Below are positions 28,132 to 30,549 of a stretch of 64,000 bases of DNA, in pieces. Position 1 is the stretch's first letter. Each line of letters starts with the position of its first letter. The notes below the pieces were generated by a model. The model saw nothing but the letters and a program-made list of their open reading frames with translations. It had not been told where the DNA came from and did no database searches. This DNA is from a virus (taxonomy: Duplodnaviria; Heunggongvirae; Uroviricota; Caudoviricetes): IMG/VR virus record IMGVR_UViG_2703718777_000015. The stretch is one strand, 5' to 3'. The translations under genes and the position numbers were made by a program.

Positions 28132-28206
28132 TGGTGGCCCTGCTGGACTTGAACCGGTGACCGTGCGATTATGAGTCGCCAGCTCTAACCACTGAGCTAA
28201 AGGGCC
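28132..28206 (-). tRNA. tRNA with CAU anticodon (ileX-like tRNA-Ile2/Met); T-stem has mismatches
   Basis: GGCCCTTTAGCTCAGTGGTTAGAGC...CTCATAA...GTTCAAGTCC...CCA read from reverse complement. Confidence 0.7.
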
Positions 28207-28233
28207 GGATTACTGCCAATTTTGCTTACACTT

Positions 28234-29061
28234 TTATTTCACCGGAACAAACGGAACAGCGGTATTACTGGTCATATACTGCGGTAATGTACCGTTCCAT
28301 TTGTTGATCGCTTCCAACTCCATAACACCGGGGTTCTGGCGCAGAGCTTCACCACGTAAACGAATGGCATCAGCTTCGGCCTGGGCTTTTGTGCGAATAG
28401 CATCAGCCTGTCCGGCAGCTTCCGCGCGCAGCATGTTGGCCTCTGCTTCACGTTGTTTGACCTCTTGCTCGCGTTGCAGGGTTTTTTGGTTTGCCGTGAC
28501 TTTGGCGTTAATACTGTCAATAACTGTTGGCGGGTATTCTGGCTTACCTACATAAGAGAGGCTCATCACCTGAATGCCGATTGGCGTCATTTCTTCCTGA
28601 ATGTCTTTAAGGGCTGCATCAAGCAATTCAGATTTGCCACCGTCGATAAATTTGTCGGTGGTCATTTTGCTGGCTAACCGGTTCAGAGCATCTGCAACCT
28701 TCTGGCGTAGATCGGTATCAGTAATATCATCTACACCTTTGCGATAGGTCTGAAATACCGTTGTGACTTTTGCTGGATCAACCTTGTAGGCTACGCCGAT
28801 GTGGTAACCAATGGTTGTTCCGTCGCTCATCTGGAAGCTGAACGGCTCATCGTATGTCTTCATTTGCTTAAAGGTCGGGAAGATATAAACTTCAGTATTC
28901 AAGCCTGTCCAGTAGCGACCAACGCCAACTACTTCACCGATACCTTTATCATCCCCCAGCTTATTTACTTTGATCCCTACGTTACCTGGCTCTACCCGAT
29001 CGCATCCGGTCAGACATAAAGAACCCAAAATAATCGCTGCACTAATCAACGTTTTTTTCAT
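28234..29061 (-). CDS. SPFH/band-7 domain lipoprotein
   Basis: Lipobox LTGC; prohibitin-like core; charged/Ala-rich coiled-coil C-terminus. Confidence 0.7.
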   Translation of the reverse strand: MKKTLISAAIILGSLCLTGCDRVEPGNVGIKVNKLGDDKGIGEVVGVGRYWTGLNTEVYIFPTFKQMKTYDEPFSFQMSDGTTIGYHIGVAYKVDPAKVTTVFQTYRKGVDDITDTDLRQKVADALNRLASKMTTDKFIDGGKSELLDAALKDIQEEMTPIGIQVMSLSYVGKPEYPPTVIDSINAKVTANQKTLQREQEVKQREAEANMLRAEAAGQADAIRTKAQAEADAIRLRGEALRQNPGVMELEAINKWNGTLPQYMTSNTAVPFVPVK

Positions 29062-29278
29062 TAATTAATTTCCTGGTTTTTTCACGAAAAAAGACTACTG
29101 CGAAAGCCGGGTAAATGAGCGCGAGAAGGACTCCCAACAATACAAGTATTGTGCTGTTAGATGAGATCATATTTGGCAAAAGCCAAACATACAGAACCAG
29201 TGACACAATCAAACAGAGGACGGCATAAATATATAACCGCACCCATAGCGTTCGACATTTGTTCGGATTGTTCTGCAT
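29042..29278 (-). CDS. small membrane protein (NfeD-like partner of SPFH gene)
   Basis: Two TM helices; overlaps start of SPFH gene. Confidence 0.5.
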   Translation of the reverse strand: MQNNPNKCRTLWVRLYIYAVLCLIVSLVLYVWLLPNMISSNSTILVLLGVLLALIYPAFAVVFFREKTRKLINEKNVD

Positions 29279-29650
29279 CCTCTCACTCCATTATTTAACG
29301 AATAAAAAAGCTGCGGTGCCGGGTGCCTCCCGGTATCCTTTGGCTGGTTATCTACCGTGGACGGGGAAACAAGGAGAAATAATGGACAGATATAACCATT
29401 TCCCCGCGTGCGCTTAGCCGCATTCACCGCAACGGAAAGAGCATTCTTGGTGGACCTGTAGATTGGGATATGACCCCGTTACGCCAATGTTCTCAACGTT
29501 GTAGTGCCGGTTACGGTTCCGGCCAGGCCTCTTCCTCAACGTGGTGTTCTCCATACGGACTACCGTTTATTGGTCGTTCCTGCGGTTTATGTTGTGAAGC
29601 CAGATGCTTATCTTCTGGTTGCTTCAAAGAGCTGCACTTCCTCACAACGG

Positions 29651-29730
29651 TAAGGGTACTTCGTAGGGATTCGAACCCTCTGCCAAGCTCGGCGATCTCC
29701 GACGTCGCAAAATACCCTTACCTGTTGTGC
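29651..29730 (-). pseudogene. tRNA-like remnant (T-arm GGGTTCGAATCCC plus anticodon-like hairpin, no canonical D-arm)
   Basis: Reverse complement contains TTCGAAT T-loop and a 9-bp terminal stem GTAAGGGTA/TACCCTTAC; not foldable as a standard cloverleaf. Confidence 0.3.
29715..29730. repeat. 16-bp direct repeat copy 1 (CCCTTACCTGTTGTGC) abutting the tRNA-Thr 3' end
   Basis: Exact repeat of 30151-30166. Confidence 0.6.
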
Positions 29731-29806
29731 TGGTGCCGATTAACGGACTCGAACCGCTGACATCCTGCTTACAAGGCAGGCGCTCTACCAACTGAGCTAA
29801 ACCGGC
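29731..29806 (-). tRNA. tRNA-Thr (anticodon UGU)
   Basis: GCCGGTTTAGCTCAGTTGGTAGAGCGCCTGCCTTGTAAGCAGGATGTCAGCGGTTCGAGTCCGTTAATCGGCACCA. Confidence 0.85.
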
Positions 29807-29808
29807 AT

Positions 29809-29884
29809 TGGCGATGGTGGATGGATTTGAACCATCGACCCGTTGATTAACAGTCAACCGCTCTAACCGCTGAGCTACACCATC
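29809..29884 (-). tRNA. tRNA-Asn (anticodon GUU)
   Basis: GATGGTGTAGCTCAGCGGTTAGAGCGGTTGACTGTTAATCAACGGGTCGATGGTTCAAATCCATCCACCATCGCCA. Confidence 0.85.
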
Positions 29885-30150
29885 ACTTGCCGGGTACGTC
29901 TCCGGCGAGGGCTTCCACCTCCGTATGCTTTTCGGCGCACCGCGCCCTGGCTGCAATTCGGTAACAGGGGATGCATAACCCTGGCTTCCAGCGTGATTAG
30001 CGCTTTCAGCATGACGGGATATACCCGTAAATTCGTGGAACTGTACCCAAAGTGCTGTTAAGCACCGCTGTTACGCTGAAAAGAAGACGCAACAGGAAAG
30101 GACGCTGACCAACAGATGGCCCCTTCTCGTTCATCTGGTTAATCACACCA

Positions 30151-30166
30151 GCGCCCTTACCTGTTG
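30151..30166. repeat. 16-bp direct repeat copy 2 (CCCTTACCTGTTGTGC)
   Basis: Exact repeat of 29715-29730; followed by an anticodon-arm-like GGCGACTCATACCCC segment. Confidence 0.6.
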
Positions 30167-30549
30167 TGCCTCCCCGTTCCCTAATACACAGACGGGGACA
30201 CTCTGCGGTCGATTTTTTGACGGGGGGCGACTCATACCCCGTGGCGTCTGGCTTCTTAGGCCGCTACCATCATCAGATCATCGTTTGCATTTACTTTAAT
30301 GGTCAGTTTCTAAACCGCCGCAAAGTCGCTAACCATGACGAAAACCCTGAAAAAAACGCCCACCCGAAGATGGGCAAACTGGAAGCTCGTAACGCACTTC
30401 GGAGTTGCCACTTAGGCGCATGGTCAACCTGGCAACTCGGTGGTTTGTCTGGGAGGACTAGGCCCAGCCATGCTTACCGCCGCGCCTGTCGCGGCTAACA
30501 GCTAAATCGCTTTATAAATCACGATTCATTGAGGCGATATTACACTAAT

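Follow-up and report, generated by a model that had tools for sequence, protein, structure and literature searches.

The presumed tRNA remnant beside tRNA-Thr in the window (the whole 64,000-nt stretch of viral DNA that was analysed) is the apex of a long RNA hairpin and represents a conserved, anticodon-less tRNA-like element (TLE) without a free CCA. The window is a P1-like phage-plasmid, and the locus is the untranslated leader, about 2.7 kb long, of the C1-controlled (C1-repressed) ban operon, transcribed from the minus strand. The leader is a series of long RNA hairpins that have their base in common (CAC(A/G)AC...GUUGUG), covary in the middle and differ at the apex; the 16-bp direct repeat of the locus is the common 5' arm of two of these paralogous hairpins, H0 and module A, the latter carrying the TLE (Table 1). 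The TLE has so far been unannotated, and in P1 it is hidden beneath the annotation of the plp ORF. In the reading that we consider rather likely, the ban leader consists of processing hairpins, with the TLE as an apical payload and the 16-mer as a shared arm.

Gene content and rearrangement of the ban leader

Table 1. Features of the ban leader region (positions of the window)
Feature	Position	Strand	Basis or remark
tRNA(CAU), ileX/tRNA-Ile2 type, equivalent to P1 trnI, private 3' variant	28133..28207	-	ARAGORN; Rfam tRNA 42.2 bits
275-aa SPFH/Band-7 lipoprotein	28234..29061	-	Pfam, PHROG 200; alternative cargo to tciABC
78-aa small membrane protein, 20-nt overlap with the SPFH gene	29042..29278	-	ORF; PHROG 1130 'membrane protein, moron'
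STnc100-like sRNA region, ending in hairpin and U-tract, directly upstream of the cargo genes	29312..29431	-	
Chimeric hairpin, module D 5' half and module C 3' half; 255-bp deletion junction	29427..29504	-	
'Module B tail', joined straight to the module A 3' arm; 174-bp deletion junction	29505..29639	-	
Module A, long hairpin carrying the TLE at its apex	29640..29730	-	RNAfold, covariance model R1, covariation
TLE core	29655..29716	-	acceptor-like stem, D-arm-like hairpin, 11-nt linker, T-arm, then C-CCU
16-mer copy 1, 5' arm of module A, minus-strand reading GCACAACAGGTAAGGG	29715..29730	.	repeat search
tRNA-Thr (UGU)	29731..29806	-	ARAGORN; Rfam tRNA 72.9 bits
tRNA-Asn (GUU)	29809..29884	-	ARAGORN; Rfam tRNA 74.5 bits
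Hairpin H0, module A paralogue without tRNA-like apex, upstream of tRNA-Asn	30079..30175	-	
16-mer copy 2, 5' arm of hairpin H0	30154..30169	.	
Intrinsic terminator-like hairpin, strong, U7 tract, within the P1 'dicF-like' stretch	30357..30376	-	
Palindrome, P1 C1 operator Op72/Oban and Pban promoter	30534..30571	.	placed by homology to P1 annotation

The earlier note had described three intact tRNAs; all three genes are present according to ARAGORN and Rfam, but intactness is doubtful for the tRNA(CAU), whose variant 3' part (GTCCAGCA-GGGCC) results in two T-stem mismatches and a 1-nt deletion and was found in none of the 271 fetched loci (the canonical P1 version in 75). An Rfam YrlA match in the window (25.6 bits vs a gathering score of 69) overlaps the true tRNAs.

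Between the tRNAs the window carries an SPFH gene pair where, as the earlier note had stated, the reference P1 annotation has tciA, tciB and tciC. The 275-aa product matched PF01145 (Band_7) with 107.6 bits (cut-off 23.6, E = 1e-30) and has a lipobox, LCLTGC, read directly in the sequence; the SPFH lipoprotein of PHROG 200 is a phage moron that occurs also in P88 and Stx2 phages. The arrangement resembles SPFH/NfeD operons, in which a small membrane-protein gene lies immediately upstream of, and overlaps, an SPFH (Band_7) gene, but here the SPFH protein is a lipoprotein and the 78-aa protein lacks an NfeD domain (it gave no NfeD match in Pfam at E ≤ 0.1, and the label NfeD-like was not confirmed). 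PADLOC found nothing for the SPFH pair or the neighbouring proteins. Against RF02076 (STnc100), the STnc100-like region scored 33 bits (E = 1e-4) and its copy in RCS47 38.3 bits, both under the gathering score of 47. A canonical-looking STnc100 copy was also read by eye downstream of the TLE in a lambdoid contig (L094). The Rfam DicF model did not match the stretch annotated as 'dicF-like' in P1.

Two deletions distinguish the window from related phages: a 23-bp repeat (29638-29660) delimits 174 bp that RCS47 and 813R1 have and the window lacks, and a 25-bp repeat (29458-29482) delimits 255 bp that are missing relative to P1, MH422554, RCS47 and 813R1. The arms of the chimeric hairpin at the second junction pair only in part, and this module D/C chimera was found in only four sources (the window, L034, L041 and L069); recombinant hairpins with mismatched arms occur in other phages too, e.g., in L238 and L246. 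We infer that unequal homologous crossovers between repeats of this kind produced the compact layout of the window, and they would account for the length polymorphism of the locus among P1-like plasmids. The suggestion that the locus shows scars of tRNA duplication or a recombination site is thus borne out in one respect, i.e., repeat recombination shaped the locus, as seen in the deletion junctions; the element itself is no duplication scar but a conserved structured RNA, with an identical core, a compensatory stem and homologues in Uetakevirus and lambdoid contigs.

The same stretch is annotated with the genes upl and plp ('putative lipoprotein') in P1 (AF234172) and RCS47, and a 96-aa plus-strand ORF is present in the window (29470-29760). 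Nevertheless, a protein-coding role of the plus strand is most improbable here: the missing 255 bp comprise almost the whole of upl and the initial 76 nt of plp, plp overlaps tRNA-Thr in P1, the ORF is unannotated in P7, D6 and MH422554 and has no Pfam match, and a covarying minus-strand RNA structure occupies the same DNA.

Structure of the tRNA-like element and of the hairpin family

The core of the TLE comprises an acceptor-like stem of 7 bp (UAUUUUG/CGAAGUA), a D-arm-like hairpin (GCGA-CGUCGGAGA-UCGC) with GG in its loop, a linker of 11 nt where the anticodon arm would be, and a perfect, canonical T-arm (GAGGG-UUCGAAU-CCCUA). The distance from the acceptor to the T stem is only 27-30 nt, and the folds show one small hairpin between these stems and no anticodon arm (5-bp stem, 7-nt loop). 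The T-arm motif GGGTTCGAATCCC has a single exact occurrence (29666-29678, minus strand), and the T-arm with its conserved T-loop (GGGUUCGAAUCCC, same position and strand) was unchanged in all 15 aligned variants. On the 3' side, C-CCU in P1 and CUC or UCC elsewhere are paired into the basal helix, leaving no free CCA. Of the earlier description (an 80-nt element with a T-arm and no canonical D-arm) the T-arm was confirmed; a D-arm-like hairpin is present, and it is the anticodon arm that is missing. That the element is not a canonical tRNA agrees with both programs: ARAGORN did not call it, and RF00005 (gathering score 29 bits) gave no match at E ≤ 10 in a 101-nt search, in which tRNA-Sec reached 14.6 bits. 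The mascRNA model scored 14.9 bits on the TLE (gathering score 42.5), no Rfam family matched the TLE hairpin, and no paper on this element was found in the searchable open-access literature. Homology to the neighbouring tRNA-Thr was considered, and by eye none was seen except for the generic T-loop.

Module A begins 1 nt past the CCA of tRNA-Thr, and in its basal stem GCACAAC-A-GGUAAGGG pairs with CCCUUACC-GUUGUG. RNAfold gave -42.1 kcal/mol (z -4.1), and R1, a covariance model built in this analysis, scored 103.6 bits at 29631-29740, within the range of TLE hairpins (84-115 bits) and above that of other members of the hairpin family (18-35 bits). In the enclosing stem both sides change in 12 of the 21 pairs; 93.7% of the cells of the stem alignment pair (31-51% with slid partners), and the covariation score was reached by none of 500 shuffles. 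The acceptor-like stem (columns 29-35 with 81-87) shows two-sided changes at pairs 29-87, 33-83 and 34-82, the last of which is GC, CG, UG or GU in alignment A1 and AU in further variants. RNAalifold independently recovered the long stem and the T-arm, and the many G.U pairs fit a minus-strand RNA only. The D-like and T-arm stems are invariant, so that covariation is uninformative on them; if the element spread horizontally not long ago, or serves as a site of crossovers, this could explain part of their invariance. Some natural recombinants carry lower arms that do not pair.

Two other readings of the arms were rejected. A boxA-type antitermination signal was suggested by UGCUCUUU, which is present in many 3' arms, but it is always base-paired and is not kept in the TLE of P1 (CCCUUACC) or of L094 (UCCUCACC). 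A MITE with terminal inverted repeats does not agree with the wholly different basal arms of L081, L244 and L094.

The exact 16-mer (CCCTTACCTGTTGTGC) abuts the CCA of tRNA-Thr in one copy and recurs in H0; by our own arithmetic, about 0.001 such pairs are expected by chance within 2.8 kb. The repeat is exact, as previously noted, but the spacing given for it, 435 bp, is in fact 439 from start to start, with a gap of 423 bp. H0 folds with -50.2 kcal/mol (z -5.2), was matched by R1 with 18.5 bits (E = 0.0015), and its copy in D6 has compensatory arm changes. The 16-mer is not a duplication scar or target site but the 5' arm of two members of the hairpin family. An "anticodon-arm-like fragment" reported beside the second copy (GGCGACTCATA, 30226-30236) matches the anticodon arm of the tRNA(CAU) only as an 11-nt inverted repeat, of which about one is expected by chance in 2.8 kb (own arithmetic); it forms a small hairpin's loop, differs in RCS47 and is replaced by unrelated sequence in homologous lambdoid leaders. 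In the tRNA loci of P1-like and SSU5-like elements, family hairpins begin 0-3 nt from the CCA of tRNA-Thr and tRNA-Ser, and the CCA of tRNA-Asn is likewise adjoined by such a hairpin in one SSU5-like plasmid; the family shows compensatory arms in both kinds of element.

Distribution and conservation

The 62-nt core of the TLE is 100% identical in at least 16 records of P1-like phages including D6 and SJ46 (in D6 although the flanks are only about 94% identical), and the core was invariant over at least 30 unique variants. About 50 nt of it are near-invariant across P1-like, lambdoid and Uetakevirus (epsilon15-like) phages, in most of which no tRNA is nearby. Homologues were found in one Uetakevirus and about 20 lambdoid-type contigs, and ARAGORN detected no tRNA gene in the four Uetakevirus/lambdoid TLE loci on which it was run. 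The lambdoid TLE is located between a Q-like antiterminator (PHROG 753, E = 3e-51; NinG upstream) and the lysis genes, and the late leader of HK620 has the same hairpin scaffold between pR'/qut and S; in lambdoid and P22-like phages this scaffold makes up the leader of the late operon, from pR' to the holin gene. No protein gene was seen to neighbour the TLE consistently in its P1, lambdoid and Uetakevirus settings. The TLE is absent from P7, Ro157c2YLVW and the SSU5-like plasmids, and thus is not essential for the maturation of tRNA-Thr; an SSU5-like homologue (L008) has a degraded T-arm and reached only 22.9 bits with R1. A loose scan of genome contigs (GGAGATC N10-20 GGGTTCGAATCCC) returned, judged by the record titles, only non-enterobacterial matches, mostly archaeal and presumably true tRNAs.

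These data bear on a view close to that of the earlier note, in which the element is a functionless, decaying tRNA pseudogene or duplication scar that hitch-hikes beside tRNA-Thr. The failure of ARAGORN and the Rfam tRNA model to call it, the degraded T-arm of L008 and the visible proneness of the locus to repeat-mediated rearrangement are in line with this view, which we disfavour as unlikely: the core is invariant across P1-like phages, Uetakevirus and several lambdoid types despite their differing flanks (and in D6 is fully identical next to diverged flanks), compensatory substitutions occur in the acceptor-like and basal stems, e.g., at pair 34-82, and the element is found without a nearby tRNA gene.

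The hairpins could also act as DNA, i.e., as recombination sites (attC-like folded single-strand sites or conserved 'module boundary' sequences) by which phages exchange tRNA and cargo cassettes, which we regard as quite unlikely. The hairpin ends resemble the R''/R' boxes of attC ([G/A]CACAAC vs RYYYAAC, GTTGTG vs GTTRRRY; by eye 6 of 7 and 5 of 7 positions match), one base bulges out between the boxes, and the apex varies; the presence of tRNA-Ser and tRNA-Tyr varies among elements, recombinants with breakpoints inside the core exist, and SSU5-like plasmids carry an integrase gene some 2 kb away from the array. However, the boundaries of tRNA-Ser and tRNA-Tyr are not at GTT: attC cassettes require the GTT side at this place, but what precedes the tRNA-Ser of P7 is CACAAC, and tRNA-Tyr is gained or lost without any hairpin. 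The many G.U pairs and a T-loop polarity on one strand only also argue against it, and ordinary homologous crossovers in the 23-25-bp repeats explain the deletions. Integron attC-like sites are therefore disfavoured: the boxes do resemble those of attC, but neither the cassette boundaries nor the G.U pairs agree with such sites.

A putative processing function

In the processing model that we prefer, the conserved basal helix of about 21 bp would be cut by an endonuclease, with RNase III as the most plausible one: the predicted helix (6+8+7 bp with one bulge) is supported by covariation and attains the roughly two turns of mostly unbroken dsRNA that characterize RNase III substrates. A cut there would separate tRNA-Thr and the downstream mRNA and free the apical payload. 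With its acceptor/T stack of 12 bp, the TLE payload would display a tRNA elbow, and this combination is the minimal recognition unit for tRNA-handling enzymes such as RNase P, RNase BN/Z, TruB and TrmA; given such an elbow, further trimming of the TLE would yield a stable mini-tRNA of about 60 nt that lacks an anticodon. Since the acceptor-like stem runs unbroken into the basal helix, RNase P or Z would need this helix to be opened or cut first. The 3' CCU/CUC/UCC, which is not a conserved CCA, stands against the model. Functionally, the locus would be an RNA-processing cassette, possibly one that releases a tRNA mimic.

A purpose of the payload that is compatible with processing, and that we put forward tentatively, would be that of a putative trans-acting mimic: the freed mini-tRNA would bind and titrate a host factor recognizing the tRNA elbow or acceptor arm and so aid lytic growth, candidate targets being a tRNA-targeting defence nuclease, SmpB, RNase P or a T-loop modification enzyme. 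The core (GCGAYGYCGGAGAUCGCC...AGAGGGUUCGAAUCCCUAC) is near-invariant while the flanking stem drifts, and its conservation exceeds what a mere cleavage site should need, which favours such a mimic; the operons concerned are on in lytic development (C1-controlled in P1, Q-dependent in lambdoids), and the lack of a consistent neighbouring protein gene points to a host partner. Against it, several P1-like phages do without a TLE, and the neighbouring proteins drew a blank in PADLOC. The TLE may, with low confidence, represent a new class of phage anticodon-less tRNA mimic that is excised from lytic-phase leaders and would act on a host tRNA-recognizing factor.

Comparison with known RNAs and significance

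The TLE shares with canonical tRNA (RF00005) the UUCGAAU T-loop, a covarying 7-bp acceptor-like stem and a D-loop-like hairpin containing GG, and with the true tRNAs of the locus the strand and transcription unit, but it lacks the anticodon arm and a free NCCA, its 3' end being paired into the continuing helix. Like the tRNA-like domains of tmRNA and of the bacterial Y-RNA-like YrlA and like the eukaryotic mascRNA (the last of which is excised from a long transcript by tRNA-processing enzymes), it would be an elbow-bearing tRNA mimic without a decoding anticodon arm; it belongs to none of these families by sequence or covariance model, and its long helix continues the acceptor end instead of arising where the anticodon would be. 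The alanine-identity pair G3:U70 is absent; U3.G70 or C3-G70 is conserved instead.

Hartmann and colleagues are said to have shown in 1995 that the precursor of the C4 antisense RNA of P1 and P7 is an RNase P substrate with tRNA-like features. This would be a likeness within P1 itself, a non-tRNA transcript of the phage that a host tRNA enzyme matures by way of its tRNA-like features (as proposed for the TLE), but C4 lies at another locus (immI) and has a known regulatory target, whereas none is known for the TLE. The rtT repeats of tyrT and the 3' external transcribed spacer 3'ETS-leuZ, both from E. coli tRNA operons, are repeated or structured non-coding RNAs that immediately follow a tRNA 3' end on a shared transcript. 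The phage modules also occupy this position, but they are long with variable apices, gave no Rfam RtT match and also occur without a tRNA. STnc100 and PasD, described as base-pairing prophage sRNAs (bioRxiv 10.64898/2026.05.13.724894), reside in the same kind of phage leader, and hairpin tails (GGUGAAU, then a hairpin) resemble the matched part of RF02076; however, the TLE hairpin itself has no RF02076 match, and STnc100 and PasD are not tRNA mimics.

In the reference genome of P1, a stretch annotated as hypothetical upl and plp is, on the present evidence, an array of structured RNAs. The P1 ban leader shares non-coding modules with the lambdoid/P22-like late leader, a region which also holds the tRNAs of Stx phages and the prophage sRNAs STnc100 and PasD, and two long-studied regulatory regions are thereby linked. 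The TLE is a strongly conserved tRNA-like element outside every Rfam model, and it offers a testable candidate for the phage maturation of mRNA-embedded tRNAs or for a phage tRNA decoy.

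Gene content of the locus

According to the P1 annotation, the locus is the ban operon, which lies on the minus strand of the window. Its order in P1 is dmt (divergent), the C1 operator Op72/Oban with Pban, a "dicF-like region", tRNA-Asn and tRNA-Thr, upl and plp (annotated on the opposite strand), tciA, tciB and tciC, trnI, and ban and dbn. In megablast, positions 27700-30700 matched the P1-like phages MH422554, MH445380/1, 813R1, RCS47 and Ro157c2YLVW over the full length (96-99% identity), and reference P1 and P7 with only 60-63% coverage. The P1 annotation has tciABC where the earlier note placed it; in the window, as in RCS47, 813R1, MH422554 and Ro157c2YLVW, a 78-aa membrane protein and a 275-aa SPFH lipoprotein are encoded there instead. 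The SPFH/band-7 call was confirmed (Pfam Band_7, E 1e-30), and the NfeD-like call was not (no NfeD match; the 78-aa protein is PHROG 1130). The lipoprotein gene is ~87% identical in DNA to genes of phage P88 and many Stx2 phages, annotated there as "serine protease" or "lipoprotein", and looks like a mobile moron; PADLOC found no match for the protein. The dmt methyltransferase gene varies in length from one P1-like element to another: its ORF has 672 aa in the window, P7 and MH422554, 754 aa in reference P1 and ~1,095 aa in RCS47.

Coordinates of features in the window
Feature	Position	Strand	Remark
CAU tRNA	28133-28207	-	P1 trnI, ileX type
SPFH lipoprotein gene	28234-29061	-	275 aa
78-aa membrane protein gene	29042-29278	-	overlaps the SPFH gene by 20 nt
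upl/plp stretch of P1	29279-29730	+	3900-4469 in locus L001
STnc100-like sRNA	29312-29431	-	sub-threshold
D/C chimera	29427-29504		255-bp event
25-bp overlap	29458-29482		T-arm-like GGGKTCATATCCCAATCTAC, common to modules D and C
44-aa ORF	29511-29645	-	in the "B tail"
23-bp overlap	29638-29660		3' arm of A and B
Module A hairpin	29640-29730	-	
tRNA-like element, core	29655-29716	-	apex of module A
16-mer, copy 1	29715-29730		5' arm of module A	
tRNA-Thr(UGU)	29731-29806	-	
tRNA-Asn(GUU)	29809-29884	-	
Hairpin H0	30079-30175	-	paralogous to module A
16-mer, copy 2	30154-30169		5' arm of H0
dicF-like stretch and next 150 nt	30180-30440	-	homologous to lambdoid late leaders
Terminator-like hairpin	30357-30376		strong; ~180 nt downstream of Pban
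dmt ORF	30557-32575	-	672 aa

Three tRNAs were found by both ARAGORN and Rfam, as the earlier note had proposed. Whether the CAU tRNA is intact is doubtful: it scores 42 bits in Rfam and carries a private 3' segment (GTCCAGCA-GGGCC replacing GTCCGGTAGGGGCC) that results in two T-stem mismatches and the loss of 1 nt. The 3' strand of its T-stem resembles chromosomal E. coli ileX and the 5' strand is still P1-like. The variant was absent from all 271 loci compared, and 5,426 E. coli genomes contain no 100% match to it; gene conversion over a short patch or an error in sequencing could account for it. The tRNA set varies among P1-like and SSU5-like phage-plasmids, with tRNA-Tyr(GUA) between Asn and Thr in three loci (L003, L009, L010; 4-5-nt spacers) and tRNA-Ser(UGA) further downstream in five (L004, L005, L008-L010), with ...CACAAC in front of it and a hairpin of its own behind.

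The tRNA-like element and its hairpin

The element described in the earlier note as a tRNA remnant (here TLE, tRNA-like element) follows the CCA of tRNA-Thr on the minus strand in the order G, CACAAC-A-GGUAAGGG; UAUUUUG; CGACGUCGGAGAUCGCCGAGCUUGGCA; GAGGG-UUCGAAU-CCCUA; CGAAGUA; CCCUUACC-GUUGUG. Folding returned module A as a single long hairpin (-42.1 kcal/mol, z -4.1), whose apex, as modelled, reads as a tRNA minus its anticodon arm: a 7-bp acceptor-like stem, the hairpin GCGA-CGUCGGAGA-UCGC with a D-loop-like loop (xGYYGGxxA), an 11-nt linker, and a T-arm with a canonical T-loop, the T-arm motif being found only once. The arm reported as lacking, the D-arm, has a counterpart, and it is the anticodon arm that is missing. 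At the 3' end, the "discriminator" C and CCU are base-paired within the continuing helix. The inner fold has more than one candidate, since RNAalifold favours a 3-bp GCC/GGY mini-hairpin inside the linker; the sequence is too short for a D-arm and an anticodon arm together. ARAGORN did not call the TLE as a tRNA, and an Rfam search of 101 nt around it gave nothing significant (mascRNA 14.9 bits, tRNA-Sec 14.6 bits, no match to the general tRNA model).

Pairing in the proposed structure was counted in an alignment of 15 distinct TLE variants. Standard pairs filled 93.7% of cells, compared with 31-51% when the 3' partners were slid by 1-3 columns; both sides had changed in 12 of the 21 pairs of the long stem (pair 34-82 is GC, CG, UG or GU, and AU in extra variants), and the covariation score was reached by none of 500 shuffles. 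The D-like and T stems are uninformative for structure because they never vary, and are strikingly conserved beside drifting flanks. Both the many G.U pairs and the T-loop polarity agree with an RNA on the minus strand, where the tRNAs lie and from which the operon is transcribed. A covariance model of this alignment scored TLE hairpins at 84-115 bits, other family members at 18-35 bits and a degraded SSU5-like copy at 22.9 bits; its sole matches within the window were the TLE at 103.6 bits and H0 at 18.5 bits. The TLE is a conserved structured RNA module.

The 16-bp repeat has two exact copies as the earlier note stated, at a spacing of 439 rather than 435. Copy 2 is the 5' arm of a second long hairpin, H0 (-50.2 kcal/mol, z -5.2), and therefore the repeat is the common arm of two paralogous hairpins flanking the tRNA-Asn/tRNA-Thr pair. 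The second "anticodon-like fragment" did not hold up: it resembles the CAU tRNA only through an inverted match of 11 nt, of which ~1 is expected by chance in 2.8 kb, and forms the loop of a small hairpin that differs in RCS47 and is unrelated sequence in the homologous leaders of other phages. RCS47 carries hairpins H0, A, B, D and C; P7, D6 and Ro157 carry subsets, and a separate set is present in SSU5-like phage-plasmids from Klebsiella and E. coli. Every member shares the base CAC(A/G)AC...GUUGUG and a middle with compensatory changes (arm pairs GGUAAGGG/CCCUUACC, GUUGAGAACACUGG/CCAGUGUUCUCAAC, GUUGAGCGGUUUGG/CCAGACCGCUCAAC and GAUAAGAUCAUUAC/GUAGUGAUCUUACC), and the apices are mutually unrelated. 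Hairpins of this family start 0-3 nt from the CCA of tRNA-Thr, tRNA-Ser and, in the SSU5-like plasmid L008, tRNA-Asn.

Distribution

At least 16 P1-like phage records, D6 and SJ46 among them, share the 62-nt TLE core at 100% identity, and horizontal spread could partly account for this invariance. In Enterobacter phage BUCT554 (Uetakevirus) the core has 90% identity, and the acceptor-like and basal arms differ yet still pair; the 4 kb around it contain no tRNA gene. Scans of IMG/VR added ~20 lambdoid-type contigs, which brings the set to 112 instances with at least 30 unique variants, and further variants exist beyond these. In one such contig (L012) the TLE stands right after an intrinsic terminator, with NinG (Pfam) and a Q-like antiterminator (PHROG 753, E 3e-51) upstream, and, downstream, a possible holin and a lysozyme-like gene whose Pfam Phage_lysozyme match falls below the cut-off; L094 shows the same arrangement by eye, and ARAGORN found no tRNA in L012, L081 or L094. 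In HK620 the leader from pR'/qut to S is built on the same scaffold, and its homologous hairpin bears a different apex. The 3' arm and tail (GCTCTTTCCGTTGTGGTGAATGCGCAGGCTGATGCG) are present in 160 phage records. Among 5,426 complete E. coli genomes, 464 contain the TLE (466 plasmid and 9 chromosomal places), and none of the 30 places listed has an annotated feature at it. The locus is a mosaic of such RNA hairpin modules, which it shares with lambdoid late leaders.

The P1 "dicF-like" stretch and the next 150 nt are homologous to part of the pR'-to-S late leader in HK620 and lambdoid contigs (L300 1250-1415; L012 about 4440-4555), sharing ...AGAAACTGA.CA..AAAG.TAAATGCAAACGA...; the Rfam DicF model has no match in this stretch of the window. 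The STnc100-like sRNA reaches 33 bits, where the gathering score is 47, and ends CCGGGAGGCACCCGG...UUUUUU immediately upstream of the cargo genes, and a canonical-looking STnc100 lies downstream of the TLE in L094. STnc100 is a prophage sRNA related to PasD, and "tRNA-like sequences" near Pas genes are given only as presumed integration remnants (bioRxiv 10.64898/2026.05.13.724894). The open-access literature searched yielded no description of the TLE; an earlier mention elsewhere is possible.

Rearrangement of the modules

BLAST block structure revealed two events in the window. Relative to RCS47 and 813R1, 174 bp are absent, with a 23-bp overlap, and hairpin A is fused to the B tail; relative to P1, MH422554, RCS47 and 813R1, 255 bp are absent, with a 25-bp overlap, leaving a D/C chimera. 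Both are probably deletions, not insertions. In a census of about 300 loci and the window, A had its own tail in 48 and the B tail in 48, and the D/C chimera occurred in four (the window, L034, L041 and L069). Because the same junctions recur, the layout is heritable and not an assembly artefact. Two IMG/VR contigs (L238, L246) have natural recombinant TLE hairpins whose 5' and 3' basal arms, no longer pairing, stem from different lineages, which indicates that crossovers fell within the invariant core.

The absent 255-bp segment takes in almost the whole of upl, together with the first 76 nt of plp. Since P1 plp also overlaps tRNA-Thr and the TLE, the two ORFs are without annotation in P7, D6 and MH422554, and the remaining 96-aa ORF has no Pfam match, upl and plp are unlikely to be real genes. 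The B tail also contains an ORF of 44 aa on the minus strand (MRKCSSLKQPEDKHLASQHKPQ...); its start codon is GTG in the window and ATG in relatives, with no obvious Shine-Dalgarno sequence.

Possible function

Most of what the earlier note observed is real. Its reading as a scar of tRNA gene duplication gives way to a conserved tRNA-like RNA module in a recombining hairpin family, and the TLE belongs with tRNA-like structured RNAs, a kind already known. The conserved basal helix is a putative processing site, for which RNase III is the most plausible enzyme. A cut there would free the tRNAs, the payload and the mRNA of the long untranslated transcript from one another. With its elbow and 12-bp acceptor/T stack, the TLE payload is a predicted target of tRNA-handling enzymes and may remain as a mini-tRNA that has no anticodon. 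The unbroken helix would hinder RNase P or RNase Z unless it were opened first, and relatives without a TLE exist.
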